In this document: piece after piece, positions 13,924 through 64,000 of the stretch
Layout: each line of letters opens with the position of its first letter
Numbering within the stretch: position 1 is the first letter of the stretch
Assembly: GCA_964589775.1 (NCBI GenBank)
Contig: CAZPUN010000021.1
Coordinates: 53,768-117,767 of the forward strand
Direction: 5' to 3'
Length of the DNA: 64,000 nt
Source: an uncultured archaeon
GTDB taxonomy: Archaea; Asgardarchaeota; Thorarchaeia; Thorarchaeales; CAZPUN01
The notes under the pieces: model-generated
What the model was told of the DNA's origin: nothing
Database searches by the model: none
Seen by the model: the letters and a program-made list of their open reading frames with translations, nothing else
Program-made: the position numbers and the translations under genes

Positions 13924-13946
13924 AAGGAGGATAGATCAGCCCCACT

Positions 13947-13998
13947 AGATGATGCGCATACGTTGTGCATCATCTTCTCTTTTGTTTATTGATTTTTT
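13947..13998 (+). terminator. Hairpin plus T-tract terminator
   Basis: A 12-bp stem (AGATGATGCGCA / TGTGCATCATCT, one G-U) at 13947-13975 with a TACGT loop is followed by TCTCTTTTGTTTATTGATTTTTT. Confidence 0.6.
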
Positions 13999-14119
13999 CG
14001 CGATATGATCAATGCTATTTTTAAAACCCATATCATAAAAAAGGATATTTATAAATTTTTGATAATCTCGAAATTGATTTTTAATGTGTATTTAAGTAAG
14101 AGAATCTTATGTAAATACA

Positions 14120-14584
14120 CTATATTCTATTTTTTTCTTTTATGTATTTTAAAATTTCAAGATGTATTGTTGTTGGGTCTTTTTGATATACTTTCGGCGT
14201 AAATCTCTTTGCACGCACGATTGCTTTATCTAATTGTGAAAGGTCTTTACACCAAATTAGATATCCATTTGTATCCATATATTCTGCCAATTGGTCTTGA
14301 TGTGCATCAAGCAGATCTTTATTTGTAACTACTATTAGTTTTCGGCCCTTTTGTATATTCTCAAATATCGTTCCTGAGCCCGCAGAAGCAATTATGATAT
14401 TTGCTTTTTCATAATATGGTTCTAAACTTGGAACTAATCTCACATATCCAAAATTCTTAGGAATATACTCTCCAATGCCAATTTGGGCAAATACCTCATC
14501 CTTGATTTTTCCTTTTTCAACTAGTTCATCAACGGCTTTGACTAATTTATCAAATTTATATGTTCCAACTGTAACAAAGATCAT
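14120..14584 (-). CDS. Alg13-like glycosyltransferase subunit (GT28 C-terminal domain)
   Basis: The N-terminal MIFVTVGTYKFDKL is the Alg13/MurG C-terminal domain signature. It overlaps the Alg14-like gene by 4 nt. Confidence 0.7.
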   Translation of the reverse strand: MIFVTVGTYKFDKLVKAVDELVEKGKIKDEVFAQIGIGEYIPKNFGYVRLVPSLEPYYEKANIIIASAGSGTIFENIQKGRKLIVVTNKDLLDAHQDQLAEYMDTNGYLIWCKDLSQLDKAIVRAKRFTPKVYQKDPTTIHLEILKYIKEKNRI

Positions 14585-15069
14585 ATTAACTTACCCCGAT
14601 AAATTGCCTTTGGATATTTCTTAGCAAGTTCTTTCCATTGTACAAAAAAGAGATCCGTTCGGCCATACATTATTTTTCCTGTCATCGACAGTTCTTTAAT
14701 TCTACTAAGGCTTTCTATATAAAAGGTATATAGCCCAAGAACCTTTGCAGCAAAAAATACCGGTACAGTTAGTCCACTTCCCGGACTCGCAACAGCAGCA
14801 ATTTTGTGCTTTCTAAGTAAATTTAGCATAACAAAAAATGTCTTTATAGTTCTATATGCCGATTTAATCTTGCTTGCATGAGGATCATCACGAGGTGAAT
14901 CTACATGAATGATCGTACCGGGGAGTTTTTTATTCCGAATCTTCTTCTCTCCAAGTTCATTTGTCTTGGACATTATATATACTAACTCTACGTAATCTTT
15001 CAAAGATTCTGCAAGCTTAATTCCCTGCCGTGTATGCCCACCTTTTCCAAGTACTATAGCTATTTTCAT
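14581..15069 (-). CDS. Alg14-like protein (UDP-GlcNAc transferase membrane-anchor subunit)
   Basis: IAIVLGKGGHTRQ is the GGHT motif of Alg14. It is paired with the Alg13-like gene. Confidence 0.7.
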   Translation of the reverse strand: MKIAIVLGKGGHTRQGIKLAESLKDYVELVYIMSKTNELGEKKIRNKKLPGTIIHVDSPRDDPHASKIKSAYRTIKTFFVMLNLLRKHKIAAVASPGSGLTVPVFFAAKVLGLYTFYIESLSRIKELSMTGKIMYGRTDLFFVQWKELAKKYPKAIYRGKLI

Positions 15070-15265
15070 TTTTCTAATCGCCAGTTCTATAATCTTTATG
15101 TTTCTTTTTTAATTTATTGTGACAGGCTTAATCAGACGTCTCAGTATATTATTTCCTTATTATATATGCAATACGTGAAGAATACTTACTTTTATTTATT
15201 TTTATGAGAATATTTCCAATAGAAATAAAGGTTAATTAGTTAAAAAATAAATTAAGTGATGCGTT

Positions 15266-16036
15266 ATGAGCATTAAAAAAGACCGACCGACCACGTCCAA
15301 GCGTCCTCAAACCCAAGGTAAGAAATTAGCCAAGAAAGATCTATTAAGGCTCAGGGGATTGAGTCTTTCATTTAGGATGTATTATTTTGAGAAAGATCTT
15401 ACCGTTTCACAAGTGATGAGTAAAATTAAATCTGCATTAGGTGATGAGGGATTCATATCTGCATCTCAACAGCCTGACCGTGTATCTGCCGAATTTATTA
15501 TTAGTTTTCCAGTTCATGTATCTGGGCTCGATTCATATGGGAACATAATGCCCATGACCTACATGGCACAGGAGAAAGGTACTGTTATTATCAAGCCAGA
15601 GACTCGTACTATTGAGGTACGTGGTTCAAAGAGGGTAGCAAAGCGTGCGATTTATACATTAGAGAAGATCTTCAATATGAAGATAAACTCTCTAGGTTTC
15701 AATAATGGTGGAATGGCAGAACTGTATAAGAAAGCAAACACTATTGGATCTGTTTTGATTACGGATATGGAAAATCCATATTTGCGAGCTATTGAAATTA
15801 GCGGAGAATCTGTTCGTAACGCACCTGAAATTGGTGTATTTACACGACGCCAGAAGGGAAAGATTTCCCGATTTCGTGGTGCATTTGAGTTTCCCTCGGG
15901 TCAAATATTGACGACTACAATTGACGCTGATGGAAGTGTAATTATATACAAGAAAGGCGAAGGACTATACGCATTGGACGTGGATTGGTTCGTACAAACA
16001 TTAGAGGAGACTGCCCTTGCACATCTTGAAGGATAG
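15266..16036 (+). CDS. Hypothetical protein with a basic N-terminus (256 aa)
   Basis: The N-terminus is KRPQTQGKKLAKK. No family recognised. Confidence 0.4.
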   Translation: MSIKKDRPTTSKRPQTQGKKLAKKDLLRLRGLSLSFRMYYFEKDLTVSQVMSKIKSALGDEGFISASQQPDRVSAEFIISFPVHVSGLDSYGNIMPMTYMAQEKGTVIIKPETRTIEVRGSKRVAKRAIYTLEKIFNMKINSLGFNNGGMAELYKKANTIGSVLITDMENPYLRAIEISGESVRNAPEIGVFTRRQKGKISRFRGAFEFPSGQILTTTIDADGSVIIYKKGEGLYALDVDWFVQTLEETALAHLEG

Positions 16037-24849: not shown

Positions 24850-25128
24850 ATGATAAAGAAATTATTACAATTAATACAAAAAAATGGTATATCTAGTCGT
24901 TCTATTTTGGCAAAAGAAATGAATATCTCTGTTGAATTATTAGATTTGATGCTCACAGATCTGCAACGCAAGGGATATATTGAGGTTAACAAAATACCTG
25001 ATGGGACGTCATGTGAAATATGTCCATTTCATAAAATTTGCAAAATTTCAAAGGAAGAATGCGAATCTAATAATCAACAAACACTCAGATTAACTAAAAA
25101 GGGTCTTGATTTTGTAAATTCACAATAA
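24850..25128 (+). CDS. FeoC-like winged-helix protein with a C-terminal Cys cluster
   Basis: LLQLIQKNGISSRSILAKEMNISVELLDLMLTDLQRKGYIE is wHTH-like (FeoC-like). The C-terminus carries CEICPFHKIC...C. I chose the start at the ATG at 24850. Confidence 0.45.
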   Translation: MIKKLLQLIQKNGISSRSILAKEMNISVELLDLMLTDLQRKGYIEVNKIPDGTSCEICPFHKICKISKEECESNNQQTLRLTKKGLDFVNSQ

Positions 25129-25650
25129 TGATTTCTGTCGGACTTTTTCTAAAATACGTTCTACAAGTTTTTGGAATGCTTCTTCAACACCAATTGCATT
25201 TTTTGCGGATGCTCTTACATATTCAAGGTCATATTTTTCTACCACTTTCTTTACATTTTCCGGGTTAGTGTTTGATGGTAAATCAATTTTGTTCTCTATT
25301 AGTATGACCGGTATTTTTGAATTGACCTCATATAATACATTTAACCAATCATCGATCGTATCTAATGTTTCTGGTTTAGTTGTATCAAAAACAAAAAATG
25401 CACCCGCTGCATTCTGATAATATGCTCTTCTTAAATTTCTAAAACCTTGTTGTCCTGCAATATCCCAAATAACTAATTTTACGGTTAAATTTTTTACTTG
25501 TACGTGTTTAACGTGAATGTTGGTTCCCAAAGTTTTCAAATAGTCTTGACTGAAACTATCATAAACGAATCTACTGACTAGACTAGTTTTTCCAACTTTG
25601 CCTTCTCCTAGAAAGCAAACCTTGAATAAATATGTATTACGAGTTTCCAC
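25120..25650 (-). CDS. Ras-superfamily small GTPase (Rab/Ras-like)
   Basis: G1 is GEGKVGKTS, G3 is WDIAGQ, G4 is NKID and G5 is SAK. Length is 176 aa. Confidence 0.85.
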   Translation of the reverse strand: METRNTYLFKVCFLGEGKVGKTSLVSRFVYDSFSQDYLKTLGTNIHVKHVQVKNLTVKLVIWDIAGQQGFRNLRRAYYQNAAGAFFVFDTTKPETLDTIDDWLNVLYEVNSKIPVILIENKIDLPSNTNPENVKKVVEKYDLEYVRASAKNAIGVEEAFQKLVERILEKVRQKSLL

Positions 25651-32370: not shown

Positions 32371-33984
32371 GTGATTTTAATGAGTGCAGGAGAGAAAAAA
32401 ACAACAGCACCAGAGAGCAGAAAGGAAGCGATTGAAGCAGTTCTACGTGAATCTGGCTTAAGTGATGAAGAAATCTCTATTTATTTAGGGACAGACCGTG
32501 ATACTAGTTTTTCAGGTCCGGTTGAAGAATCTTTAACCCTGCCTGAAGGAGTATCTGTTGCGGATGAAGATGCTATTGAGAAAGTTATTGAAGAGGAATT
32601 TGAAGAAGCATTAAAGTGGGTAGATTCCCTAGAATCTAAAGAACGCACGCCTGAATTGATCGAGGCTGCACCCGAAGAAGGTTTCGATGTCATATTAGAT
32701 AAGCTTGAGGAATTACGAACTGAAGTAAATAGGCTTCAAAGAGGAATTATCACCGTTTTTGCCAGTCAACTGTTGCAACTACGTAAAAAGATCAGTAGTT
32801 TATCTGGTGATATATCTGATGAAATGGTTCGACGATTACGTATGAAATTCTTCAAACCCTTTATTGAAACGACATATCGTTCTATTGTAGATGATGAATT
32901 TGAAAGGCTAGAACGTGAAATAATAGATAATATTGTTAAATCGACCGGAGATAAATTCAAAGAATTTGCAATTAGTGTCCGTGAGTCTGAAGAAAAACTA
33001 CGTAGCGTAGTTATGGATCAAAAAGAAGTTGTTGAAGAATATCTAAAGAGCTTAGAACGTGAACTCGATGCTGAGCGCGATAAGAACATTAAGAACACTC
33101 GAATTATTGAAGATTTGAAAAGAGAAAATCTCGAGCTAAGAAAGCAATTAGGTCTTCTGCGTGAGAAGGGTGCGATTGCCGGAGAAACTGATAGACGTAT
33201 TGATGAACTTACTGATGAACTTGATTCTCTGCGTGCTCAGATTGCTAAGAAAGATGTTACTATCGCGGGTCTCCGAGAAAGTTTGGAAAAAGCTAAACAA
33301 AGAATTGATGAGTTAACGAAACGTAATGGCGACCTTGAAGCGCAATTAGAAATATTCAAGACTGAGGCATCATCTGGTTCTGCGGATGTTGAGAAGTATC
33401 GTATTGAAATTGAGAGTTTGAAATCCAAGATTAGTATTTTAGAAAAAGCTCTCGAAGAAAAACGAATGCAAGCTGAACTTGCGCAATCTAAGATTCGCAA
33501 ATTAGAAGATGAACTTGAATTGGCCCGCTCTACGACATCTGAATCTACTGTAACTGTTTCTGAGGATGTTATGAAAGAGCTAACTGAGCTACGCGAGCGT
33601 ATCAAACATGTTGTTGAGCTTGAAGAAAAAGTTTCAAAGTTAGAAGATGAACGGAAGCAATATATTGCTAAAATTGATGAACTCAAAGCTCAAGTTGACG
33701 AAGCGCAGCAAAATGCGATGGCATTTCAGCAAATTGTAGAAGATCTTCAAAAGGCTAAGGATGAAGCGGAATATCTCATGGGTCGTTATAAGACAATCTT
33801 AGATTCAGACAATCAATATAAGATGATTATTTTACTTGATAGTGTTAAAGCAATGAATTTGGATGCATTAGCAAAGACACTTGGAGCTCCGAAGGGTCTT
33901 GTCAAATCTTGGGCTATGAAATTACAAAAGCTTGGGCTTGTAGAAATTGAAGGCGATGTGGTACGGGTTGTCGAACGACTCTAA
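32371..33984 (+). CDS. Long coiled-coil protein with a C-terminal winged-helix domain (paralog A)
   Basis: About 350 aa of heptad-rich E/K/L/R sequence. The C-terminus reads LDALAKTLGAPKGLVKSWAMKLQKLGLVEIEGD. It shares Y.I.DDEF and the C-terminal wH with the 57398 and 63363 proteins. Confidence 0.55.
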   Translation: MILMSAGEKKTTAPESRKEAIEAVLRESGLSDEEISIYLGTDRDTSFSGPVEESLTLPEGVSVADEDAIEKVIEEEFEEALKWVDSLESKERTPELIEAAPEEGFDVILDKLEELRTEVNRLQRGIITVFASQLLQLRKKISSLSGDISDEMVRRLRMKFFKPFIETTYRSIVDDEFERLEREIIDNIVKSTGDKFKEFAISVRESEEKLRSVVMDQKEVVEEYLKSLERELDAERDKNIKNTRIIEDLKRENLELRKQLGLLREKGAIAGETDRRIDELTDELDSLRAQIAKKDVTIAGLRESLEKAKQRIDELTKRNGDLEAQLEIFKTEASSGSADVEKYRIEIESLKSKISILEKALEEKRMQAELAQSKIRKLEDELELARSTTSESTVTVSEDVMKELTELRERIKHVVELEEKVSKLEDERKQYIAKIDELKAQVDEAQQNAMAFQQIVEDLQKAKDEAEYLMGRYKTILDSDNQYKMIILLDSVKAMNLDALAKTLGAPKGLVKSWAMKLQKLGLVEIEGDVVRVVERL

Positions 33985-51113: not shown

Positions 51114-52811
51114 TTATTTTTTGATTCTTTTTTCCTTTATAATTTTTAATAATTCTTTAAGTCCATTTTCAATGGACGGCCCTGTAATAATCGAAGTTTC
51201 TGTAAATAATGCTGGTAGTCCATTTTCGGCCTCTCTAGCTTTTGATATCAATTTGATTTTCTCTAATGCTTCGTCCTTTGAAACCGGTGCCTCGCCCATA
51301 TCCTGATCATTCGCAGTGATAATGCGTAAATCAATTTTGTTTCCAACAATAAGAATTGGTGTTTCAGGCCCTAACATTTGATTTATTTCTTTAACCCAAT
51401 AGTCAATACTCTGATAGCTCCATCGATCTACAACTGAATATACGATTATCGCTGCTTCTGCATCTGCATAGAATTTTCCACGTGTAATCTTTATTTTCTT
51501 AGCTTCATTCAAAGGCCAAATTTCTGTATCAAAAGCAACGTCCTTCAATGGAATTTCTTTTGTAAGAATTCTCATTGTGCTTAATGATGTTATTTGTTCT
51601 TCTTGTTCGTTGAACCCTATATTTTCAAATAGTGAACTCATTCCTACGTCATCTTCACCTAATACAACAACTTTAACTTTGTATTTGGGTAGTTCTCTTA
51701 CAACTAATGTCTCTACTTCTTCTTTTTCTGTGGTTGGCGTCTCTGTAGGTGCTTCCACTTTGGTTTCTATGGCGGGTGCTTCCACTTTGGTTTCTATGGC
51801 GGGTGCTTCCACTTTGGTTTCATTTGATACAATTTCGGGTTTAGAGGCTGATTCAGGAGTTATCTGTTTTTCATCACTATCATATTTTGTAGTCATCTGA
51901 TCAATAATTCTCAATGTGTATGAAACTAGATCTTCTTCTGTTGTACTTTGTTTAATTGTTTCCTCCATAATTTGCTCTAGGACTTCTTCATCAGTTTTTT
52001 CAATTTGGGGTATTATAATTTTTCTTTCATGTGTAGACTCTTCCACTTTAGTTTCTGTGGTAGGTGCTTCTACTTTAGTTTCTACGGGAGGGCCTTCCAC
52101 TTTAGTTTCTGTGGTGGGTGCTTCCACTTTGGTTTCTGTGGTGGGTGCTTCCACTTTGGTTTCTGTGGTGGGTGCTTCCACTTTGGTTTCTATGGCGGGT
52201 GCTTCCACTTTGGTTTCTATGGCGGGTGCTTCCACTTTGGTTTCTATGGCGGGTGCTTCCACTTTAGTTTCTGTGGCGGGTGCTTCCACTTTAGTTTCTA
52301 CGGGAGGGACTTCCACTTTGGTTTCTGTGGTGGGTGTTTTCACTTTAGTTTCTATGGCGGGTGCTTCTACTTTGGTTTCGCTTTTTCTTGTAGGGATCAC
52401 TTCTTCAATTATGTCACTAATTATTTTTGACTTATCAATAATCGGCTTTTTATCTGATTCTGGTATTGGCTTAGAAGTAGGTTCTATCGCTTCTGTTTGA
52501 GTTTCCTTAATTTCAGGTTTGATTGGTTCGACGGACCCCCAGATATCATCTGACTCAGGCTCTGGTTTAATTTCCTCTACTTCTACGAAGATTTTCTTAG
52601 CCTTTGGTATTCCAATCTTTAGCATGACTTCTTCAACTAATGCCGGCGGCAGTATCTTTCCTTTATAATAAAAGAAACGTTCTAGTTCTTTTCGGACTTG
52701 ATCAAATGACTTTCCTTTTACTGGAATTGTTTTTATTAATCTGCCTTTATCCTTAATGCGTATTGTTTTTTGCTCCAATGTTATTCCAAATGTTGTTCCT
52801 GGGACAATCAA
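51114..52811 (-). CDS. Multidomain protein with an N-terminal domain, a long (E-T-K-V-E-A-P-A/T-I/T)n tandem-repeat linker and a C-terminal Ras-like GTPase domain with a degenerate P-loop
   Basis: The C-terminal domain has KVKVVVLGEDDVGMSSL (G1 with Met in place of Lys), VGNKIDL (G4) and FTETSII (G5). The middle carries at least 16 copies of a 9-aa repeat. Confidence 0.6.
   Translation of the reverse strand: MIVPGTTFGITLEQKTIRIKDKGRLIKTIPVKGKSFDQVRKELERFFYYKGKILPPALVEEVMLKIGIPKAKKIFVEVEEIKPEPESDDIWGSVEPIKPEIKETQTEAIEPTSKPIPESDKKPIIDKSKIISDIIEEVIPTRKSETKVEAPAIETKVKTPTTETKVEVPPVETKVEAPATETKVEAPAIETKVEAPAIETKVEAPAIETKVEAPTTETKVEAPTTETKVEAPTTETKVEGPPVETKVEAPTTETKVEESTHERKIIIPQIEKTDEEVLEQIMEETIKQSTTEEDLVSYTLRIIDQMTTKYDSDEKQITPESASKPEIVSNETKVEAPAIETKVEAPAIETKVEAPTETPTTEKEEVETLVVRELPKYKVKVVVLGEDDVGMSSLFENIGFNEQEEQITSLSTMRILTKEIPLKDVAFDTEIWPLNEAKKIKITRGKFYADAEAAIIVYSVVDRWSYQSIDYWVKEINQMLGPETPILIVGNKIDLRIITANDQDMGEAPVSKDEALEKIKLISKAREAENGLPALFTETSIITGPSIENGLKELLKIIKEKRIKK
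51745..51830. repeat. 27-nt in-frame tandem repeat, block 1 (about 3 units)
   Basis: GGTGCTTCCACTTTGGTTTCTATGGCG is repeated head-to-tail. It encodes AIETKVEAP on the minus strand. Confidence 0.85.
52035..52385. repeat. 27-nt in-frame tandem repeat, block 2 (about 13 units)
   Basis: It is the same unit with wobble variants (TCTATGGCG / TCTGTGGTG / TCTACGGGA). Confidence 0.85.
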
Positions 52812-52915: not shown

Positions 52916-54175
52916 ATGGATAAGTACGAAAAATTAAAGTCCGGCGAGCGTGTGATTGTAGTTTCATTCATAGTTACAGTTTGTGTATTTATAGTTGAGA
53001 TAATTGTGGGAATTCTCAGTAATAGTGTTTCACTTACTGCTGATGCTATTCATACAGCAACAGACTCGTTAGGTATCATTGCTGTATTTTTCGGTTTAAA
53101 AATTGCACAACGTAAGCCTGATGAACGATTCCCGTATGGATATTACAAAGCTGAAAATATCGGCGCATTAGTTGTTGCCTTTATAATCTTATTAACTGCT
53201 GTGGATATTTTGGTTGATTCAATGGATGCAATTTTACATCCGCGAACATTAAGTATTCCTTTAGTAGCTTTGACCGTAGCAGCTGTTGGTACTGTTATTT
53301 CCTACCTTCTTGCGTATTATAAAGGAAAAACCGGAAGAAAAATAAATTCACAATCTCTTATTGCTGAAGCTGAACATTCTCGGATTGATGTTTTTGCAAC
53401 AGCTCTTGTGTTTATTGGTATTCTAGTTTCATATCTTGGATTTCCAATTGTAGAAGCCATGGCTGGTTTTATTGTTTCTATTTTTGTTGCTATTTCAGGT
53501 TTAGAAATTGCAAAAGATGCACTTTTTGTTCTTATGGATGCATGTACAGATTCTGAGTTACCTATACAGCTAAAGGAATTTATAGAATCACATCCCAAAG
53601 TTGATGGAGTACACTCTATAAAGATTCGTCGTGCAGGGCCATTTCTTTTTGTTGATGCACATTTAGAGCTTGCACCTACATATTCTGTTAATTTTGCGCA
53701 TGAAATCTGTGATGAACTTGAAGAACGTATTAAAGAAAAATTCAACAATATTGAATCTGTAAACTTTCACGTCGAACCTGGTACTGGGGATTCTAAGGTC
53801 ATTGCAGTCCCTGTAGAATCAAGAGACGTAAGCTTAACAGATAGAATTTCATCGCATTTTTCAAGAGCACCATATTTTTTGATCATTCGAGTAAAGCATA
53901 AGGAGATAGTTGAAACAAAAATTGTTGAGAATCCTGCAAAAGATATATCCTCCAAAAAGGGATTAAAAATCGCTCATGTATTAGTAGATGCTGGGGTTAC
54001 TGTTGTAATTACAAGGAATATCGGTGAAATTACATATTATGCATTAAACAGTCTTGGAATACTTATTTTTAGGACTGATGATGATGTTGTAGAAAATGTC
54101 GTAAAATTATTTTTGCAAGGAAAATTAAAATATTATGAGCTCGCAATATCTGAAAAATTTGAAAAAAATAAGTAA
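52916..54175 (+). CDS. Cation diffusion facilitator (CDF) transporter fused to a C-terminal NifX/NafY-like domain
   Basis: The six-TM core has the HTATDSLG and HSRID motifs of CDF proteins. The C-terminal 110 aa (KVIAVPVESRDVSLTDRISSHFSRAPYFLII...VITRNIGEITYYALNSLGIL) resembles the 39434 protein. Confidence 0.7.
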   Translation: MDKYEKLKSGERVIVVSFIVTVCVFIVEIIVGILSNSVSLTADAIHTATDSLGIIAVFFGLKIAQRKPDERFPYGYYKAENIGALVVAFIILLTAVDILVDSMDAILHPRTLSIPLVALTVAAVGTVISYLLAYYKGKTGRKINSQSLIAEAEHSRIDVFATALVFIGILVSYLGFPIVEAMAGFIVSIFVAISGLEIAKDALFVLMDACTDSELPIQLKEFIESHPKVDGVHSIKIRRAGPFLFVDAHLELAPTYSVNFAHEICDELEERIKEKFNNIESVNFHVEPGTGDSKVIAVPVESRDVSLTDRISSHFSRAPYFLIIRVKHKEIVETKIVENPAKDISSKKGLKIAHVLVDAGVTVVITRNIGEITYYALNSLGILIFRTDDDVVENVVKLFLQGKLKYYELAISEKFEKNK

Positions 54176-54404: not shown

Positions 54405-56528
54405 ATGTCCATATTATTATATTCTGATAAGCCGCTTTCTGGGAATGAAGTTGCAAAGCAAATTGGAATTACGCGTTATTATGTTTTTGAAATTTTGAAA
54501 AAATTATCTGAACGTGACTATATTACAGTAACTCCAACTCGTCCAAAATTATATTCTTTTTCAACATCCATTTTACAAGATAAAATTTCAGAAACGGAAT
54601 TATACTATGATAATTTAATTAAATCTGTTCAACGGAACGGTCCATTCGTGGTTCTCTCTGAATTAAAAGACTTTAATACAAATGCTGAGCGTATATATGT
54701 TGCATTAAAGGGAAGAAATCATACTGTACAATCTATTTCCAAAGTTACTGGAATTCCCCATTATACTGTGCGACAAATATTGAAACAATTTGTACAATAT
54801 AATTTAGTTCGTACCCGAAGATCAAATAAATCAATTCTTTATTTTCTTTATCCGTCAGAAATAGCAAGTGAAAAATTAGTTGAGTATCTTACTGAACTAA
54901 AAGAGAAACGAATTAAAACTCTATATGCTGCATACAATAAAATTGTAAGTCACGTTAAGAATAAAGAGCGAATCCTTGATGAAGAAATCAAAATAATTGA
55001 AGTAACCGGGCTCGAAAATGTAATAAAGCGCGTGCGTTTCATCATTCAAAAGTCTTCCAAAATCTTAAGTATTAGAGGTAAAAGATTATTTGACGCAATT
55101 TTGAATAGCCGAAACAAAAAAGAGGTCTTTTATGAGTTCAACTTGTATCTTGATGAGGTCACTCGGTTTGTTAGAAGAAATGGAGAACTCAATATTATAT
55201 TCAGTAATTATTATTTGAATGCAGAAAAATTCGGGAAGATGTTTAATGTTTTGGCGAAGTATAAAGATGTTATTGATGCTAGATTATTTAATGGACCGAC
55301 ATATGATATTGATATTATTGATGGCAAAACGATTATTGAATACTTGGGTGGAACCCCATTCAAGGCGATCATAATAAATCATCCTCAATTTGTAAACGCA
55401 CAAGTTGGTATGTTTAATTTATTATGGGAAAAAAGTCAAAATTTCTATTATGCGTATGAAAGATCATCTTCAGACATATTTAATAATGATTATGAACTAT
55501 TAATTGAATCTCTCCCAGTATTACGTGGTGAAAATGGAATTAATGTTGTAAACTCCTTCAATAACGCCATAAAAATTTGGTTTTATCTTGTAAAAAATGC
55601 AAAACAGCGAATTTATCATGTGCGTTATTATCCCGAAAATAAGGAATTTAATATGACGTATTTTCAAGATGCATACTCCCTTATCTATAATAAGGGTCGT
55701 GAGAATATTGATATTAAAATAATTAGTAACTTTCCGAATTATTTGATTAAAAAGATCGATAATGACCTCCGCTTACAAAACTTAAAAGTTGAATCTGTAA
55801 AAACGCACATTCATTATAATTTAAATAAGCACATTGGTTTTGATATCATAGATGATTTCGTATTAATTATATTTCATCCTGATGATTATTCGAAATTTGA
55901 AGACTATAAATTAATTATTGTACGTGATGATATACTACTTAATTTCATGATCCATGACTTTTTGGCTATGTGGCGTAATTCTTATGACTCAAAGTTTCTT
56001 ATATTTCCATACGTAAACAATCTTAATATGAAAAAAGAATTAATGCAAGTTCTAGATAATGATTTATTATCAAAACTTAAATCTTCAATTCCGATTCAAT
56101 TGGGTAAGATCGGCTTAACTGGATTCATAAAATTATTTTTAATTGCTGAAAAATCTATTTCTGTGATTGCACCTTGTAAATCTGACTTTGCTTCTGCATT
56201 TGGTATATATTCATTTGATGAGCTCGCCACATATATTTCAAAAACTCCTGAAGAAATACGGATAATTGTAACTGATGATGAATTAATGCCTTATATAAAG
56301 TCTTTTACCGATAATGTAAAGACTAATCTGAAACTTCACAAATTTACTTCTAAAATAGGTCCATTAACAAGCTATATTATAATTGATAATAAATATGTTC
56401 TTCAAATTTGGAAATCTGAAATCGATTTACTATATGATTATATTATCTATAAGCTTCCTCAATTTGTGAATCGTGCTATTCAACATTTTGAGTATGCATG
56501 GACTAACAGTGAAGAAGTCATTATCTAA
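54405..56528 (+). CDS. Large TrmB-like regulator with two tandem N-terminal winged-helix domains and a roughly 550-aa repeat-containing C-terminal region
   Basis: The first HTH is LSGNEVAKQIGITRYYVFEILKKLSERDYITVTPTRPKLY and the second is ERIYVALKGRNHTVQSISKVTGIPHYTVRQILKQFVQYNLVRT. The frame is open upstream to 54291 and encodes the first TrmB helix, but there is no canonical start. Confidence 0.55.
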   Translation: MSILLYSDKPLSGNEVAKQIGITRYYVFEILKKLSERDYITVTPTRPKLYSFSTSILQDKISETELYYDNLIKSVQRNGPFVVLSELKDFNTNAERIYVALKGRNHTVQSISKVTGIPHYTVRQILKQFVQYNLVRTRRSNKSILYFLYPSEIASEKLVEYLTELKEKRIKTLYAAYNKIVSHVKNKERILDEEIKIIEVTGLENVIKRVRFIIQKSSKILSIRGKRLFDAILNSRNKKEVFYEFNLYLDEVTRFVRRNGELNIIFSNYYLNAEKFGKMFNVLAKYKDVIDARLFNGPTYDIDIIDGKTIIEYLGGTPFKAIIINHPQFVNAQVGMFNLLWEKSQNFYYAYERSSSDIFNNDYELLIESLPVLRGENGINVVNSFNNAIKIWFYLVKNAKQRIYHVRYYPENKEFNMTYFQDAYSLIYNKGRENIDIKIISNFPNYLIKKIDNDLRLQNLKVESVKTHIHYNLNKHIGFDIIDDFVLIIFHPDDYSKFEDYKLIIVRDDILLNFMIHDFLAMWRNSYDSKFLIFPYVNNLNMKKELMQVLDNDLLSKLKSSIPIQLGKIGLTGFIKLFLIAEKSISVIAPCKSDFASAFGIYSFDELATYISKTPEEIRIIVTDDELMPYIKSFTDNVKTNLKLHKFTSKIGPLTSYIIIDNKYVLQIWKSEIDLLYDYIIYKLPQFVNRAIQHFEYAWTNSEEVII

Positions 56529-57397: not shown

Positions 57398-58846
57398 ATG
57401 CCTCTTAAAGATGATGAACCCTTAGAAACTGATGAGAAAATGATTTCTGATCTACTTGATGAACTTGAAGTTCCTGAAGATTTGAAAGCTGAAATTAAAA
57501 CCGGAAAGATAAAGCAAAAATTCATCAAAACTGAAAGTGTAGATGTTGCACGATACAAATTGGATCTTGATAAAGCATCCGGGAAGCTAAGGAGCTCTCC
57601 AGAGCCATATCTTGATATTTCTAAAAATCTCAATAAGCTTAGTGAGCATCTAGAAGTGGATATTGTTCCGGTTCTGTTGAAATTCTATGTTACACTTAAG
57701 GGTGAACTATCTGTTGTAAAAGAATCGATATTGGCAAGAGCAAAATCTCGTGCAAAAATGTCACTTATTAAAATGTTTATTGATAAGGATCTTTCATATA
57801 TCATCGATGATGAATTTTCAAATATTGAATCCAAATCTGGTAGTGAAGTTTTAGAGCCGGTTCTTAATCAAGTACGTGATGTTGCAGATAAACTAAAGAA
57901 GTATGATCGTGAAATCAGAAATAATGTAGCTGAACAACAAAGAACTATAGAAGCATATATTGGGACCGTTTTAAGTGTAGTTGATGATATTTCTAAGTTA
58001 GTTGAAAATATTGATGTAGTTGAGCTACAAAAGCAGCTTAGAGAACGCGATGGTATTATAGAAGCTCTTCGTACGGAATTATCGACTAAAAATATGCAGC
58101 TAAAGGCTCGGGAAAAAGAAATTGAAAATCTCAAAGCAAGAATAAATGAGCTACAAGCAAGAGTTGATGAATTAGAAGAAAATATGGCATCTGGGGAAGC
58201 AATTACTCCAGGTTATGTGTCTGAATTGCGTGAAAAAGTTCGTGCTTTAGAAGCTTCTCGTTCGTTACTTATGAGTAAATATGAAGATGCTTTAAAGCAC
58301 ATTGAAGAATCTGAATCAGAAATCAAAGAATTATCTGATGCTTTAGCCCATAAGAAAATTGAACTTGAAGATGCTTTGTATAGAATTCGCTCATTGGAAA
58401 GTGAGATTGAGGAATTACGTAAGCGACTTGCAAAAGTTACAGAACTTGAAGACGAAATAAAGAAGCTAAAAAGTAGAGATCTAACTCATCTTCTAGAACT
58501 AAAGGAACAAGATCTTAATGTTATGAAAATACAACTAGAACGTGCAACAAAGGAGCGCGACGAATATAAGCAAGAACTCGATGAGTTAAAGGCACGTATG
58601 GAAAAGTTAGACTTGCTAATTGAGCGTGATGCAAAAACCATGGCGTATAAAGTATTAGAAAAACAAAAGCAATCTACCATTCGTGATTTGGCTCGACCCC
58701 TGGGTGTATCCCCGTCCACAGTTCGAACATGGATGAATGAATTTCAGACTCTTGGCTTAGTAAAGTATATTGATGATAATACTGTTGAAATTATTGAGGA
58801 ACCCTTACCTGCTGCAGAAGATGAAGAAAATAAAGAAAGTACGTGA
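57398..58846 (+). CDS. Coiled-coil protein with a C-terminal winged-helix domain (paralog B)
   Basis: Heptad-rich ELEEL, LKAR and IEELRK sequence. The C-terminus is STIRDLARPLGVSPSTVRTWMNEFQTLGLVKYIDDN. It shares Y.IDDEF with paralog A. Confidence 0.55.
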   Translation: MPLKDDEPLETDEKMISDLLDELEVPEDLKAEIKTGKIKQKFIKTESVDVARYKLDLDKASGKLRSSPEPYLDISKNLNKLSEHLEVDIVPVLLKFYVTLKGELSVVKESILARAKSRAKMSLIKMFIDKDLSYIIDDEFSNIESKSGSEVLEPVLNQVRDVADKLKKYDREIRNNVAEQQRTIEAYIGTVLSVVDDISKLVENIDVVELQKQLRERDGIIEALRTELSTKNMQLKAREKEIENLKARINELQARVDELEENMASGEAITPGYVSELREKVRALEASRSLLMSKYEDALKHIEESESEIKELSDALAHKKIELEDALYRIRSLESEIEELRKRLAKVTELEDEIKKLKSRDLTHLLELKEQDLNVMKIQLERATKERDEYKQELDELKARMEKLDLLIERDAKTMAYKVLEKQKQSTIRDLARPLGVSPSTVRTWMNEFQTLGLVKYIDDNTVEIIEEPLPAAEDEENKEST

Positions 58847-58858
58847 GGGTATGCATAA

Positions 58859-59935
58859 TTGAATATTCAGCGAAATAAGATACTCTATGCAGATCCCACA
58901 CAACTTCGAGAAGCCGAAATGTATGAGTCATTACCAGATGGCTCTGTAAAATGTAACTTATGTGCTAGGCGGTGTATCATAAAACCTGGTCGCGTAGGTA
59001 TTTGCCGTGTTCGAGCTAATATTGACGGAAAATTGTATTCGCTAAATTATGGACGATTAAATGGTATGTATCCAGATCCTATAGAGAAAAAACCTCTATT
59101 TCATTTTGCACCCGGTTCGATTACTTTTTCCGTTAGCACACCTGGCTGTAATTTCCGGTGTCAATTCTGTCAAAATCATCACACGGTATATGAACCAATT
59201 GACCATACATCGTTTATACCTCCAGAAGTCATTGTATCTATGGCACAACGGAGCAATTCTCAAGGAATAAGTTATACCTATTCTGAGCCTACTGTATTTT
59301 TTGAAACCGTGCTAGATACAAGTAAAATCGCTCATGAACTTGGACTTTACAACACATTAGTCACGAATGGCTATATGACTCCTGAAGCTATTGATTTATT
59401 AGCTCCTTATATTGATGCAGTAAGTGTGGATTTTAAGGGCTCCGGTAATACATTCTTCTATCGGCGATATATGGGTGTTCCATATCCTGATCCTATTTTT
59501 GATGCATTATTGGCGTACAAAAAACATGGAATTCATATTGAAATTACAAATTTGATATTACCTCAGATAGGTGATTATCCGGAAGATACTAAGCGAATTG
59601 CTCGTTGGGTTGCCGATAATCTTGGTGAAAATACACCATTTCATATAACTGCATTTCATCCTGCTTTTAAAATTCGTAATATTCCTCGGACATCATCAAA
59701 ATTACTCTTGAAGCATTTAGAAATTGTACGTAATGAGGGGTTACAATTTGTATATTCCGGAAATATTCCCGGTATGAGTACCGAAAGTACTTATTGTCCT
59801 AATTGTAATGAACTTGTGATTAGCAGATATAGTGTTTTCTTAAGTTCTAATAAAGCTACTGAGGATGGTCGATGTCCCAAGTGTGGTGCAGATCTTAATA
59901 TCGCAGGACTAAACTGGATGCGGAGGAGTACATAA
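58859..59935 (+). CDS. AmmeMemoRadiSam-system-type radical SAM enzyme (PflX-like)
   Basis: The N-terminal CNLCARRC...GICRVR zinc-ribbon-like motif is followed by GCNFRCQFCQN (CxxxCxxC). A C-terminal CPNC...CPKCG is present. It has a TTG start. Confidence 0.7.
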   Translation: MNIQRNKILYADPTQLREAEMYESLPDGSVKCNLCARRCIIKPGRVGICRVRANIDGKLYSLNYGRLNGMYPDPIEKKPLFHFAPGSITFSVSTPGCNFRCQFCQNHHTVYEPIDHTSFIPPEVIVSMAQRSNSQGISYTYSEPTVFFETVLDTSKIAHELGLYNTLVTNGYMTPEAIDLLAPYIDAVSVDFKGSGNTFFYRRYMGVPYPDPIFDALLAYKKHGIHIEITNLILPQIGDYPEDTKRIARWVADNLGENTPFHITAFHPAFKIRNIPRTSSKLLLKHLEIVRNEGLQFVYSGNIPGMSTESTYCPNCNELVISRYSVFLSSNKATEDGRCPKCGADLNIAGLNWMRRST

Positions 59936-60003
59936 CGAGCCTAGATCATCTAATAAAACTTTCTTGGGAAAAAGTAGGTAATGGTTATTTACCGCATTTA
60001 CTT

Positions 60004-60828
60004 ATGTGGTCCAATAGTAAAATTAAGAAGATCGCTCTAAAATTCAATGATTATTTTTCTGTTGGAATTGTTGGGCCTAAAATTTGTGTAGGCTATGTTG
60101 GTACGGACCTTTATCGGCATCCCTGCCCAGCGCACGAAAAAATTAATGGCGGGACTCAATGTAAGTTATGTTATCAGTTAGATGTAAATGCAGTTTGTTC
60201 TCGATGTACTGGTTCTGGCTGTGATGCTAGTTCAGAACTTCAAAGTAGGTGTATTAATACTCCAACAATCGTCTATATTGCAGGATTCAAAAGTGGTGTT
60301 TTAAAAGTTGGTGTCACTCGTGAATCTCGTGGATTATCACGTTGGCTAGAGCAGGGTGCGGATTTTGCGGTTCGATTAACCACTTGTCCTGATGGTCTCA
60401 AAGCTCGAAAAATTGAAGACTTTATATCTAGTAATTTTGGTATTACAAAAGTTGTACGAAGAAATAAGAAAAAGTTCTTCAACTCGACTCAATATTCATT
60501 TGAATGGTTCAAACACGAATTACATAAGCTATTTTCGAAAGTGCGTGAACTCTTTGGTTGTAAAATTTCATTGGACAATATCTTTAATTTTGAGCCATTT
60601 TATGGTAAGAACATATCCGTTTCTCCTACTGAAATTAATATTCCTCGAGATCTTTCTGATGAAATACGTGTATTAGGTAATATAGTAGCAGTCAAAGGGT
60701 CATTTGTAGTTTTGCAATATGAAAAATCTCATTATCTTATTGACTTTTCAAAAGCTTACGGATATCATCTAAATTGGCAAAGTCAAGTCGCAATGAAAGT
60801 TCAATCGAGTTTAGAGGACTTTTTCTGA
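60004..60828 (+). CDS. Cys-rich protein with a possible GIY-YIG-like core
   Basis: The N-terminal cluster is HPCPAHE...CKLC...CSRCTGSGC...C. TIVYIAGFKSGVLKVGVTRESRGLSRW resembles the GIY-(10)-YIG-R spacing. This is speculative. Confidence 0.3.
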   Translation: MWSNSKIKKIALKFNDYFSVGIVGPKICVGYVGTDLYRHPCPAHEKINGGTQCKLCYQLDVNAVCSRCTGSGCDASSELQSRCINTPTIVYIAGFKSGVLKVGVTRESRGLSRWLEQGADFAVRLTTCPDGLKARKIEDFISSNFGITKVVRRNKKKFFNSTQYSFEWFKHELHKLFSKVRELFGCKISLDNIFNFEPFYGKNISVSPTEINIPRDLSDEIRVLGNIVAVKGSFVVLQYEKSHYLIDFSKAYGYHLNWQSQVAMKVQSSLEDFF

Positions 60829-60894
60829 CTTTATAATTAATTTTATATTGTTAAAAAATAACTAATATAAGATGGTATTGTATCAGGTGGGGTA

Positions 60895-61722
60895 TTGGAA
60901 TTGGACAGTCCTCGATCAAATATACAGTTTATAAGTATAATCCGAAAATTCGGTGGGGAATCGCTTATTTCAGTTGAATATAGTAAAAATTCGGATATCG
61001 ATGAAGATTTAATCTCTGCATTTTTACAGGCATTTTCTATTTTTGCGGGGGCAGGCGATTCTCAAGATGGACTAAGTTCGATCGAAAAAGATGGATTTAA
61101 CTATATTATTGAAACCACTGAAAAAATTCTAGGCGTAATTGTCTTAACTAAGATTGAAGATGAGCAAAATATTCGAAATAAGTTAAAGGAGTTATGTAAA
61201 GAATTTGAGGATATTTATGCATATCATTTAGATAAATGGACTGGTAATATATCTCATTTCAGAGAATTTCTAATATATATAGTTTCTAAATTTCCACTTG
61301 CCAAAATTGATTATGATCTTGTTCCGGTAAAATCTATAGATGGCGCAACAAAAACTGTAGGTCAAACTGCTGAAATTATTGAAACTGTTAAAAAGATGAT
61401 TAACGGGAAGCGAACCGTTTTGGACATAATAAACGCATCAGAAATTCCTGAAGAATTTGTAATCGGCGCCTTATCTTTAATGAAGCGATTTGGTGAAATT
61501 AAGTTTAAGCGGTCTATAAAAGAGGAAGATAAACCGCGAATTGTTGCACCAATTGGACCACAACTCAGAAGATTTTACGCCGATGTGGTTGACCAGTTAT
61601 CCGAGTTATGTACTGGTGAAATGACGATTAAAGAAATATCTTCCAAGTTGGGTATTGAATTTAATACTACTAAGTTTATATTAGAAAAATTAGCTGATTC
61701 AGGATATGTTGAATTCTTATAA
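60895..61722 (+). CDS. Roadblock/longin-like N-terminal domain fused to two winged-helix-like domains
   Basis: ESLISVEYS / EDLISAFLQAFSIFAGA / GFNYIIETTEKILGVIVLTK follows a beta-alpha-beta-beta pattern like Roadblock/LC7. wH-like segments are TVLDIINASEIPEEFVIGALSLMKRFGEI and IKEISSKLGIEFNTTKFILEKLADSGYVE. Confidence 0.4.
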   Translation: MELDSPRSNIQFISIIRKFGGESLISVEYSKNSDIDEDLISAFLQAFSIFAGAGDSQDGLSSIEKDGFNYIIETTEKILGVIVLTKIEDEQNIRNKLKELCKEFEDIYAYHLDKWTGNISHFREFLIYIVSKFPLAKIDYDLVPVKSIDGATKTVGQTAEIIETVKKMINGKRTVLDIINASEIPEEFVIGALSLMKRFGEIKFKRSIKEEDKPRIVAPIGPQLRRFYADVVDQLSELCTGEMTIKEISSKLGIEFNTTKFILEKLADSGYVEFL

Positions 61723-61771
61723 AAATAAGTGAAGCTTTTTGCCCAGTGCCAAATATTGGTACTTCGGGCTT

Positions 61772-62179
61772 TCACATTATTTGGTGTAATATCTTCTTAA
61801 TATTTCTGACAGCCTTTTTAACGTCGTTGAACACTAATCCCAGCTTTGTATCCTGTCCAGCAGTTACAATTATTATATTATCTTTATCAACTGTCATCAC
61901 AACAGTTACACCATTTTCTCCATCAATAATGATAGCTCTAACATTCCCCTGGTTTAGATTCTGTGCTGTTTGGTTTCCTGTTGCATATAATGCAGCAGAT
62001 ACTGCAGCAATAAGAGCTTCATTTTCCTCTCCGGTCATATAATTAGCTACAGGTAACCCTTCAATTGTAAGAACAGCTGCAGAAGTAATAGGTGATGATT
62101 GCACTAGTTCTTTTAACTCTTCTGTAATTTTACTTACTAACGGGCTTGATTCGTATTGGTCTGCATTATTATATCCCAT
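61772..62179 (-). CDS. Roadblock/LC7 (MglB-like) domain protein
   Basis: ITSAAVLTIEGLPVAN...ALIAAVSAALYATGNQTAQNL...VRAIIIDGENGVTVVMTVDKDNIIIVTAGQD follows the canonical Roadblock pattern. It is 135 aa. Confidence 0.7.
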   Translation of the reverse strand: MGYNNADQYESSPLVSKITEELKELVQSSPITSAAVLTIEGLPVANYMTGEENEALIAAVSAALYATGNQTAQNLNQGNVRAIIIDGENGVTVVMTVDKDNIIIVTAGQDTKLGLVFNDVKKAVRNIKKILHQIM

Positions 62180-62267
62180 TCACACCTGCCCCATTTGACT
62201 AATAATATTTTATTATTTTTATTTAATACTATTTATTATTTATTTTTATCTTTTAAAAGTTGGTGTT

Positions 62268-63308
62268 TTAATTCGTTTCTATTGTATCAATTAATTTTGT
62301 ACTTATTAGCCCCGGAGCTTCTATTTTTTCATTTGGTGTTTTCATGATCATTAGAACTTTTTCAGCATCCTCATGTAGTCCATGTTCTCTCAACAACTCT
62401 ATAAATTTCATTCCTGTTGTAATTGTTAGTCCTTTTTCTGGTATACCATTTTTAATGGAATCTAATAATGCTTCTAATGGTATGTTTCTTACTTTTATTA
62501 AGTCATTTTTATGTTTTTCAAGGTGTTTTAGGCCTTTAACTACGATTCCTCTTAATTCCTTTTGGTCTTTTGTCTCTGGTCTTCTTTGCAATATGATCTT
62601 GTACCGCTTGATTCCATTTTCTATCAGGTCTTTAATTGTGATATATTCCCCATATTCATCAATTGGTGACTTTACAGATGTTGAAATTAGCCACGCGGTT
62701 CCGAATTCTTTTGCGTACCTTGCGCCTTTTAATATTTCAGATTCTGCCAGTGGGAAAAATGAACGATATGCCTTGTATTCACATGCAAGTAACCATGAGG
62801 GGTCTCTATTCTCAACTATTAGATCTGGGGTTAATGTGTATCCGGAACCGATTTGTGGTATTGAATAATCTGCATTTGGTGCTAGGATTCGCATCAATTT
62901 TAAAAATGCAATATGGAAAATATTATGTCGTAGGTTGCGTGATTCTTGCGGATGGCGTATTCCTGCAGTATGATATAATTTCGGCATATCTGGGCTGATT
63001 CCTAATTTTCCCTTGATATATTGCTTTGCTGTGATCCTTCCTTCTTTATGTTGTTTTTTAACTAGCTCTACTGCTGCTACATATGCAAGTGCTCGGAATA
63101 ACCTTCTGCCTTCGTCAAGTAACTCATCAATTGGATCGATCGGCTCTGTATAATCTTTGGGTGGTTCCAAGCTCTCTATATCAATATATTGAGCTGCTGT
63201 ATCCAAGTCACCACCCAATAGATTCAATATATTTGTGAATTTTTTTTCAAGATTTTTTGACTGTACATATTTTCGTATTGCTATTTTTTGCTTATTGCTC
63301 AAATCCAT
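62268..63308 (-). CDS. Hypothetical protein with a PD-(D/E)xK-like motif
   Basis: GYTLTPDLIVENRDPSWLLACEYKAY gives a PD...(13 aa)...E-Y-K arrangement consistent with a restriction-endonuclease-like fold. The rest is unrecognised. Confidence 0.3.
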   Translation of the reverse strand: MDLSNKQKIAIRKYVQSKNLEKKFTNILNLLGGDLDTAAQYIDIESLEPPKDYTEPIDPIDELLDEGRRLFRALAYVAAVELVKKQHKEGRITAKQYIKGKLGISPDMPKLYHTAGIRHPQESRNLRHNIFHIAFLKLMRILAPNADYSIPQIGSGYTLTPDLIVENRDPSWLLACEYKAYRSFFPLAESEILKGARYAKEFGTAWLISTSVKSPIDEYGEYITIKDLIENGIKRYKIILQRRPETKDQKELRGIVVKGLKHLEKHKNDLIKVRNIPLEALLDSIKNGIPEKGLTITTGMKFIELLREHGLHEDAEKVLMIMKTPNEKIEAPGLISTKLIDTIETN

Positions 63309-63362
63309 TTTTTTCCCTGTTACTATTTTTTTGAATTGAAATAAATTTAGATTCTGATATTT

Positions 63363-64000
63363 TTAGAAGATTTTCTTTAATAAAGTAATCTCTTGGGTTT
63401 CTTCATTATACGATACCAGTCCTGCATTTACAAGATCGTGTATTGCATGTAAAATTACTGCAGGTTGAATTCCTGTTGCGTTTGTTAAGGCTCTTCTATC
63501 GATTGTTTCTGCTGATGTTTGTAATGTATACAATATTCTAGCATGTGGTTTCCCGGCAAATACGTTTTCAAGCAGTACTACATATATTGACAATAGATCT
63601 GAAAGGTCTAGCTTTTCATCTTCTTTACTTTTTTCAGCGGATAATTCCTTGTATAGGGAACTAATTCTATCTAATTGTTTTTGAATTTCGTTTAATTCTT
63701 GTTCTAATTCTTGTTTCTCACGTATTATTTGTGCCATCTTTTCATCTTTTGCAGATAGGTCCTCGATCATTTTATTTAATTCTTGTTCTCGGCTTTCTGC
63801 GTTTTTCTTAATTTGTTCTATTTGAAGTTCTTTTTCATCGATTTCTTTCTGTAATGTTTCGACTTTTTCTTTAAGCTGAGCAATTTCTGTATCATATTTC
63901 TCTTTATCGTTTTTGAGTTCGTCACGTTCTTTTGTTAATTCATCGATTTTTGTGTTTAGTTCATTAATTTGATTTTCAAGGTTATTTATCTTTTCTTTAT
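63363..64000 (-). CDS. Coiled-coil protein with a C-terminal winged-helix domain (paralog C), 5'-partial; it continues beyond the window end
   Basis: The minus-strand frame stays open from 63770 to 64000 (KEKINNLENQINELNTKIDELTKERDELKNDKEKYDTEIAQLKEKVETLQKEIDEKELQIEQIKK...). The C-terminal wH is ETIDRRALTNATGIQPAVILHAIHDLVNAGLVSYNEE. Confidence 0.5.
   Translation of the reverse strand, partial: KEKINNLENQINELNTKIDELTKERDELKNDKEKYDTEIAQLKEKVETLQKEIDEKELQIEQIKKNAESREQELNKMIEDLSAKDEKMAQIIREKQELEQELNEIQKQLDRISSLYKELSAEKSKEDEKLDLSDLLSIYVVLLENVFAGKPHARILYTLQTSAETIDRRALTNATGIQPAVILHAIHDLVNAGLVSYNEETQEITLLKKIF

Follow-up and report, generated by a model that had tools for sequence, protein, structure and literature searches.

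Longin and Roadblock domains form dimeric platforms in GATOR1, Ragulator and MglB, and to our knowledge every longin or Roadblock protein characterised so far serves as such a platform, for GTPases or for complexes. Many longin, Roadblock and small-GTPase genes of Asgard archaea are eukaryote-like, and almost none of them lie in informative neighbourhoods. Liu et al. (bioRxiv 10.1101/2020.10.19.343400; Nature 2021) described an Asgard family that combines a longin domain with an NPRL2-specific C-terminal domain and occurs in most metagenome-assembled genomes of Thorarchaeota and a few of Lokiarchaeota; their text gives no conserved neighbourhood for this family and notes that most genes of eukaryotic signature proteins have none. 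The same work describes an Asgard operon for a DENN protein, a LAMTOR1-like Roadblock protein and a Rab-like GTPase (10.1101/2020.10.19.343400). Here we describe a gene block of Thorarchaeota in which an NPRL2/3-like longin gene is accompanied by a Roadblock gene, radical S-adenosylmethionine (SAM) enzymes and a nuclease-fold protein. It lies at the end of a 64,000-nucleotide stretch of contig CAZPUN010000021.1 from an uncultured thorarchaeon (this whole stretch is referred to as the window).

A first-pass annotation of the window had singled out positions 57398-64000 as two mirror-image convergent operons, each headed by a coiled-coil/winged-helix (wH) paralogue and ending in a Roadblock-like protein, and had suggested an uncharacterised regulatory or defence-like module. 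All seven open reading frames that it listed are present at their coordinates and on their strands. Its description of the block as regulatory and uncharacterised stays reasonable, and its caveat that the association is purely positional was correct. Its component families are either already known or new within known superfamilies. As for the neighbourhood, which pairs an NPRL2/3-like tandem and a Roadblock protein with radical SAM and nuclease-fold proteins, no description of it was found in the searchable literature.

A conserved block of convergent genes

Loci were gathered from homologue look-ups, a scan of genomes that took one per species and a scan of metagenomes, and tblastn was run for all block proteins. 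Every relative that was found keeps the block, amounting to 72 genome loci and 50 metagenome loci; the shared gene order is carried by some 70 species of Thorarchaeota and by every informative metagenome contig. The first-pass annotation had named two outcomes as fatal to its proposal, namely a neighbourhood unconserved among relatives and an assignment of the 60004 and 62268 proteins to housekeeping families with no nuclease fold; neither was found. It is nearly certain that this is a conserved core block specific to Thorarchaeota, and it is vertically inherited on the core chromosome rather than being a mobile or defence island.

The invariant heart of the block appears to consist of two convergent transcription units. 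Unit A would run from a gene for an AmmeMemoRadiSam-type radical SAM enzyme (rSAM) through one for a DUF2797 zinc-ribbon protein to the NPRL-like gene, which is present as two tandem paralogues in most Thorarchaeota and as one copy in the lineage of the window. Unit B would run from a short coiled-coil/wH gene (CCS) through a PD-(D/E)xK-fold gene (PDEK) to the Roadblock gene (Robl), and in most Thorarchaeota on to a NifB-like radical SAM gene (rSAM2). Together with a transglutaminase-core gene (TG), a long coiled-coil gene (CCL) and the genes p119, p245 and p148, the order in the main Thorarchaeota clade is p119(-) p245(+) TG(-) CCL(+) p148(-) rSAM(+) DUF2797(+) NPRL(+) NPRL(+) rSAM2(-) Robl(-) PDEK(-) CCS(-). 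Twenty-four loci are 19 kb or longer; rSAM, NPRL, rSAM2, Robl, PDEK and CCS are each found in 24/24 of them and DUF2797 in 22/24.

The window belongs with loci L004 and L005 to a separate lineage (62-96% identity across block genes), in which the block is reduced to one NPRL copy and has no NifB-like gene, p148 or p245. The NifB-like gene was lost in this lineage, and a metagenome scan with the PDEK family recovered no lineage intermediate between it and the main clade. The mirror-image arrangement proposed earlier therefore holds for the window lineage and not for the main clade, where the opposite-strand p148 separates CCL from rSAM; CCL directly precedes rSAM only in the window lineage because p148 was lost there. 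The gap between these two genes, previously given as 13 nt, is actually 12 nt, and is so only if rSAM starts at the TTG at 58859.

Two rearrangements have left the convergent core whole. One lies in the window lineage, where homologues of the main-clade flank genes p119, A2, A1 and A3 are found together at 13645-16036, 41 kb from TG, which marks the breakpoint of this lineage; in place of TopoVI and M50, both missing, the other flank carries ProRS, H+-PPase and HMG-CoA reductase, and TG through CCS is intact. The other is found at locus L022, where the break falls between p148 and CCL and surface proteins lie upstream. No break occurs inside the convergent core over about 120 loci, whose proteins are 28-75% identical. 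TG orthologues occupy the same position in 23/24 long main-clade loci and are separated from the core in L022; CCL and TG are usual but separable neighbours of the block.

Within the units the genes are closely packed. Median gaps in the main clade are 10 nt for rSAM-DUF2797, 38 nt for DUF2797-NPRL, 59 nt for NPRL-NPRL and 7 nt for Robl-NifB-like, and the median between the convergent ends of the two units is -4 nt. Translational coupling, at least within each pair, is indicated by the tiny or overlapping gaps of rSAM-DUF2797 and Robl-NifB-like. In the window, 49 nt separate the stop codons of the convergent NPRL-like and Robl genes, and a 64-nt spacer lies between the divergent TG and CCL. 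Coordinates of the block genes in the window are collected in the table below.

Table. Genes of the block and its TG neighbour in the window.
Product	Coordinates	Strand	Basis or remark
Transglutaminase-core protein (TG), cysteine-protease-like, 270 aa	56521..57333	-	PF01841; outside the interval of the first-pass annotation, in the extended block
CCL, long coiled-coil/winged helix-turn-helix (wHTH) protein, 482 aa	57398..58846	+	sub-threshold HTH_28/HTH_29; orthologues
rSAM, AmmeMemoRadiSam-type radical SAM enzyme, 358 aa from TTG	58859..59935	+	TIGR04337
DUF2797 protein	60004..60828	+	PF10977
NPRL2/NPRL3-like longin-wH-wH protein, 275 aa	60895..61722	+	
Robl, Roadblock/LC7 protein, 135 aa	61772..62179	-	PF03259
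PDEK, PD-(D/E)xK (Mrr/restriction-endonuclease-like) fold protein, 346 aa	62268..63308	-	
CCS, short coiled-coil/wH protein	63363..64000, cut by window end	-	284 aa in source contig

The longin and Roadblock proteins

The 60895 protein had been described as Roadblock-like with two winged helices. Two winged helices are indeed present (residues 156-206 and 222-275), and the N-terminal domain (about residues 8-135) is a longin domain; the NPRL2/3-like family known from the literature had been missed. Structures were predicted for the 346-aa PDEK and 275-aa NPRL-like proteins, and for the latter the AF2 model with 120 homologues reached a pLDDT of 84.7, with the topology ββ-α-βββ-α-α followed by two winged helices. 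A profile search with this protein returned 208 homologues, and BLASTP showed no similarity to the Roadblock protein of the block. Pfam matches over 120 NPRL-like members comprised HTH_47 in 113, HTH_NPRL3 in 76 (best E 9.4e-5), DUF742 in 27 (weak) and NPR2 in 8. Arg residues at positions R17, R94, R123 and R173 are invariant in the family, and the conserved β1-β2 loop GGEP (GGES in the window lineage) resembles the 'LGPK' GP motif of NPRL2, which is discussed in PMC12290439. The single copy of the window lineage is closer to the DUF2797-proximal paralogue of the main-clade tandem.

A direct link from this family to eukaryotic NPRL2 stayed below significance. Its top PDB sequence match is NPRL2, at a sub-significant E of 0.09-0.17, and hhalign against human NPRL2, whose sequence was checked against 6ces_N, gave a weak collinear alignment over 201 columns with a probability of 10%. 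An exhaustive search of representatives found 599 NPRL-like relatives, many of them longin-only matches inside large multidomain proteins; the NPR2 and NPR3 Pfam families are absent from the ten full-length matches (about 375-425 aa) that were checked, drawn from the 150 best of the 599. A distant NPRL-like paralogue at locus L080 has PadR, HAAS and ODP lactamase as neighbours, which are uninformative.

The Roadblock/LC7 assignment of the 61772 protein held up (PF03259 Robl_LC7, 41.9 bits vs a cut-off of 23), and the solved structures closest to it are two crystals of Asgard Roadblock proteins, 9jue (E 1.6e-13) and 7f8m (E 3.9e-13). Identity is at most 42%, which rules out that Robl is the crystallised Roadblock of Thorarchaeota SMTZ1-45 (7f8m). 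Nor is it of MglB type, since the equivalog NF052242 scored 15.7 bits vs a cut-off of 200 and no MglA-like GTPase was found in the block at any locus. Indeed, the block contains no GTPase of any kind, as had been noted in the first pass. Two occur elsewhere in the window, one a small 176-aa GTPase (25120-25650, minus strand) and the other a protein of 565 aa (51114-52811, minus strand) that ends in a Ras/Roc/Arf-like GTPase domain, lies 4.6 kb from the block and is kept beside the locus in L004; neither has a counterpart near the main-clade block.

The enzymes and the DUF2797 protein

The assignment of the 58859 protein as an AmmeMemoRadiSam-type radical SAM enzyme was upheld by TIGR04337 at 290.1 bits vs a cut-off of 220, and with 59-75% identity rSAM is the best-conserved gene of the block. 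Across 61 orthologues there is no change in its C97-x3-C101-x2-C104 motif, in four N-terminal Cys or in a 4-Cys ribbon at the C-terminus. An alternative start is the ATG at 58919 (M21), near which both the orthologue alignments and the TIGR04337 match begin. Identity of the enzyme as viperin was rejected at 29 bits vs a cut-off of 180. No PF01871 or PF01875 (AMMECR1 or Memo) was found among the called neighbours in L001, L004, L006 and L007, and a crude motif test found no open reading frame with GCIG or PHAG in the window.

Downstream of rSAM, the 60004 protein had been called Cys-rich and GIY-YIG-like. It is Cys-rich, and the GIY-YIG call has no profile support. It is a DUF2797 protein (PF10977, 57.9 bits vs a cut-off of 25, with 36/36 family members matching) that has eight invariant Cys in two zinc-ribbon-like sites and a conserved KVGV...R...RW-EQGAD core. 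Going by profile comparison, GIY-YIG, T5orf172 and related Pfam families appear to be absent, with matches in 0/36 family members even at E<=10, and a profile search of the PDB gave no sequence match. In-frame with the gene, positions 59914-60003 (plus strand) encode an N-terminal extension that aligns with L004 and the main clade and includes a near-invariant Trp. In the window this extension has no ATG, GTG or TTG, and a CTG stands at 59914 where L004 carries ATG; the gene may therefore either use a non-canonical start, with a 22-nt overlap with the rSAM stop as in L004, or encode an N-terminally shortened protein. DUF2797 is missing in L029, L030 and L053, which leave no room between rSAM and NPRL, and L053 also has only one NPRL copy, so that both DUF2797 and the second NPRL paralogue are dispensable in some Thorarchaeota. 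Literature searches found no functional study of DUF2797 or AmmeMemoRadiSam, and the rSAM-DUF2797 pairing is absent from the few bacterial DUF2797 contexts reported in the literature.

PDEK was rightly called a PD-(D/E)xK protein, because the alignment shows invariant catalytic residues (E122, P161-D162 and E177-Y-K179). It has a restriction-endonuclease-like α/β core with an invariant PD...ExK motif, beside which lie helical N- and C-terminal extensions. No family model was found for it in scans of Pfam, other family-model collections and PADLOC. Its 22 homologues are all from Thorarchaeota, every named one in a metagenome-assembled genome of that group, and the protein was found on ENA, JGI and Logan contigs.

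The main-clade rSAM2 is a NifB-like radical SAM protein that reaches 224 bits with TIGR01290, under the cut-off of 343, and matches NifB crystal structures at E 1e-57 to 1e-65. In L006 (11445-12284), as in about 50 loci alike, this gene of about 279 aa encodes the core domain only and lies directly downstream of Robl, with an 8-nt overlap in L006. We know of no nitrogen fixation in its Thorarchaeota hosts. The window, whose lineage has no such gene, carries at 52916-54175 (plus strand) a cation-diffusion-facilitator protein (Cation_efflux and ZT_dimer) fused to a C-terminal Nitro_FeMo-Co domain of NifX/NifB type, a notable fusion given the NifB-like gene of main-clade blocks.

Coiled-coil proteins and flanking genes

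Both proteins that had been placed at the heads of the operons do contain a coiled coil and a C-terminal wHTH; that they are mutual paralogues is only moderately supported. The initial BLAST match between them covers the coiled coil only, the CCS HMM matches CCL at E 1.8e-5, and the hhalign probability for CCS-CCL is 41%. CCL consists of a helical N-terminal domain, a coiled coil of about 250 aa and a C-terminal wHTH, with sub-threshold HTH_28/HTH_29 matches at residues 419-456, and its orthologues in L006 and L007 are 29-30% identical. A full-length CCL paralogue of 537 aa is encoded at 32371-33984 (plus strand); in BLASTP (E 6e-20) it is collinear with CCL all the way from the helical 'DDEF' domain at the N-terminus to the wHTH at the C-terminus, and its own neighbours have no Pfam matches. 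Because of this further paralogue, the coiled-coil/wH proteins are a multi-copy Thorarchaeota family that is not specific to the block. CCS, the first gene of the minus-strand operon, extends past the window and is complete at 9092-9946 of L001 (source contig); its orthologues are 43-57% identical, with a strongly conserved C-terminal half that contains a GKPHAR-LYTL wH. TG matches PF01841 at 57.3 bits vs a cut-off of 23, and its Cys168/His203/Asp218 triad is invariant in 39 sequences.

Several neighbouring genes deserve mention. Just past the end of the window, L001 7892-8977 encodes a protein of 361 aa that has a hydrophobic N-terminus and matches no Pfam family; it lies on the same strand before CCS and is found only in L001-L005. 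On the other side, 54405-56528 (plus strand) encodes a protein of 707 aa that carries two wH domains of TrmB/MarR type at its N-terminus and matches DUF7436 weakly; the gene overlaps the convergent TG by 8 nt and sits where the main clade has p245, a near-threshold PDDEXK_1 protein. Scans for tRNAs and Rfam families found no tRNA or RNA genes in the window, the surroundings of the block included.

What the block might do

Gene identities, folds, intact active-site residues, conserved order and the cohesion of the core through two rearrangements are established for the block, and on this basis we tentatively favour, at somewhat less than even chances, a reading in which the longin-wH and Roadblock subunits regulate or scaffold the enzymes encoded with them. 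Under this proposal the longin-wH protein or proteins and Robl would be regulatory or scaffolding subunits, co-transcribed and physically associated with the enzymes that they control or assemble. The wH and coiled-coil/wH modules would provide protein-protein or DNA tethering, and any small-GTPase partner would be encoded elsewhere. The catalytic residues of rSAM, PDEK and TG, judged from alignments to be intact, argue in its favour, as do the operon-like spacing in the main clade, the platform role of characterised longin and Roadblock proteins, the usual separation of Asgard GTPase genes from those of their regulators and the lack of a match to any defence model.

Almost as likely is synteny without shared function in a slowly rearranging region, such that rSAM would work with AMMECR1 and Memo elsewhere, the NPRL-like proteins and Robl would act on distant GTPases, and PDEK would be a DNA repair or processing enzyme. 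The following points weigh against a regulated or scaffolded assembly or speak for this alternative. Enzymes of the AmmeMemoRadiSam type are usually partnered with AMMECR1 and Memo, which could be encoded elsewhere in the genome and be the real partners. Conservation of the main-clade flanks comes close to that of the block (TopoVI-A 29/35, TopoVI-B 28/35, M50 34/35 and A3 21/22), so that the roughly 120 loci are mostly not independent evidence and linkage rests on the two rearrangements. In addition, the intergenic spacers of the window are AT-rich and 49-88 nt long, and each gene could have its own promoter; DUF2797, the second NPRL, the NifB-like gene and p148 can each be done without in at least one lineage, and several members have been lost independently; in the window lineage the once-adjacent p119 moved away together with the other flank; and the components come from functionally unrelated families. 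The favoured reading is also weakened by the lack of an Arg where NPRL2 has its R78 finger, the β4-β5 loop being only 3 residues long there (the local alignment is of low confidence), and by the lack of any GTPase within 10 kb of the block in main-clade loci. As a rule, genes for Asgard GTPases do not lie next to their Roadblock or longin genes (PMC10933270), and for this reason the lack of one at the locus is not a strong argument against the regulation of a GTPase. Bare synteny is in turn opposed by two independent breakpoints that fall outside the convergent core while none falls inside, and by the tiny or overlapping rSAM-DUF2797 and Robl-NifB-like gaps, which indicate coupling within these pairs.

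It is also conceivable, although we consider it unlikely, that the block encodes a true GATOR1/Ragulator-type regulator in which the NPRL-like proteins and Robl act as GTPase-activating protein or guanine nucleotide exchange factor for a Rag-, Arf- or Ras-like GTPase elsewhere, with the block enzymes as bystanders or downstream targets. The longin fold with its NPRL-type wH signals, the tandem paralogues that in most Thorarchaeota mimic the NPRL2-NPRL3 heterodimer, the adjoining Roadblock gene, the GGEP loop and, in the window lineage, the 565-aa Ras/Roc/Arf-like protein near the block all point this way. The missing finger Arg and short loop, the lack of a GTPase near the main-clade block, the sub-significant similarity to NPRL2 and the absence of NPR2/NPR3 from the ten full-length relatives argue to the contrary. 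Going further, the block could represent an archaeal precursor of the nutrient switch formed by GATOR1 and Ragulator, with an NPRL2/3-like longin heterodimer and a Roadblock protein physically coupled to SAM- and Fe-S-dependent enzymes, a speculation that we hold to be very improbable. Those enzymes would be the two radical SAM proteins, one of AmmeMemoRadiSam type and one NifB-like, and the DUF2797 zinc-ribbon protein. The platform would sense SAM or metal-cofactor status and relay it either to a small GTPase encoded elsewhere or, by way of the wH and coiled-coil/wH proteins, to DNA. If true, it would be an ancestral counterpart of eukaryotic SAM sensing at GATOR1.

We also consider unlikely a nucleic-acid modification, restriction or processing system, in which rSAM and DUF2797 would modify a base, PDEK would cut, and the coiled-coil/wH and wH modules would bind DNA. 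This idea draws on p245 as a second near-threshold PDDEXK_1 protein in the main-clade block, on several wH modules, one of them above the TrmB threshold, and on the adjoining TopoVI genes of the main clade. The context of Memo, AMMECR1 and radical SAM genes has reportedly been linked to nucleotide-base or isoprenoid modification. However, the block has no methyltransferase, helicase or ATPase, and the nuclease call for DUF2797 is unsupported. The earlier suggestion of a defence-like module found no support either: a scan of nine proteins with PADLOC-DB 2.0 returned only noise (JetC and LmuB through coiled coils, pVip through the general likeness of radical SAM proteins, and matches to wH domains), rSAM is not a viperin, and the block is single-copy and in the same position in all species examined, with no integrases, repeats or variability.

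If the tentatively favoured link between regulators and enzymes is true, the block would offer the NPRL2/3-like family candidate partners in Robl, two radical SAM enzymes, a zinc-ribbon DUF and a nuclease-fold protein. It would also bear on the origin of the GATOR1/Ragulator branch of TOR signalling, and would provide a first context both for DUF2797 and for an AmmeMemoRadiSam-type enzyme without AMMECR1 or Memo neighbours. If only synteny is involved, the block would be a lineage marker for Thorarchaeota.

Comparison with known systems

The NPRL-like proteins share distribution and architecture with the NPRL2-like family of Liu et al., with which we equate them by description only; the text of that paper reports no gene neighbourhood for the family, whereas a conserved block is found here. 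The Asgard DENN operon resembles the block in being a conserved neighbourhood with a Roadblock-superfamily protein and a longin-related regulator, but it has its own GTPase and DENN protein, while the block has neither and carries enzymes instead. In the AmmeMemoRadiSam system (TIGR04337 with AMMECR1 and Memo), the likeness lies in a radical SAM enzyme that is above cut-off and keeps all Cys motifs; the difference is that no AMMECR1 or Memo occurs in the window or in loci of about 20 kb, the tightly coupled downstream gene being DUF2797.

Likeness to MglA/MglB and to the actinobacterial conservon (CvnA-D) is found in a Roadblock/LC7 protein encoded next to a small wH protein, together with the weak matches of NPRL-like members to DUF742 (CvnC). 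However, the block lacks an MglA/CvnD GTPase and a CvnA sensor kinase, its wH is fused to a longin domain, and the MglB model scores far under its cut-off. GATOR1 (NPRL2-NPRL3-DEPDC5) and Ragulator offer the broadest parallel. As in those complexes, a longin domain is followed by a winged helix, here with NPRL-type signals, two divergent paralogues stand side by side in most Thorarchaeota like NPRL2 and NPRL3, and a Roadblock-fold protein (compare LAMTOR) is encoded alongside. Unlike GATOR1, the block has no DEPDC5, Rag GTPase or R78-type arginine finger; its NPRL-like proteins are shorter, without the NPRL C-terminal domain, and their similarity is below significance; and its radical SAM enzymes, zinc-ribbon DUF and nuclease-fold protein have no GATOR1 counterpart.

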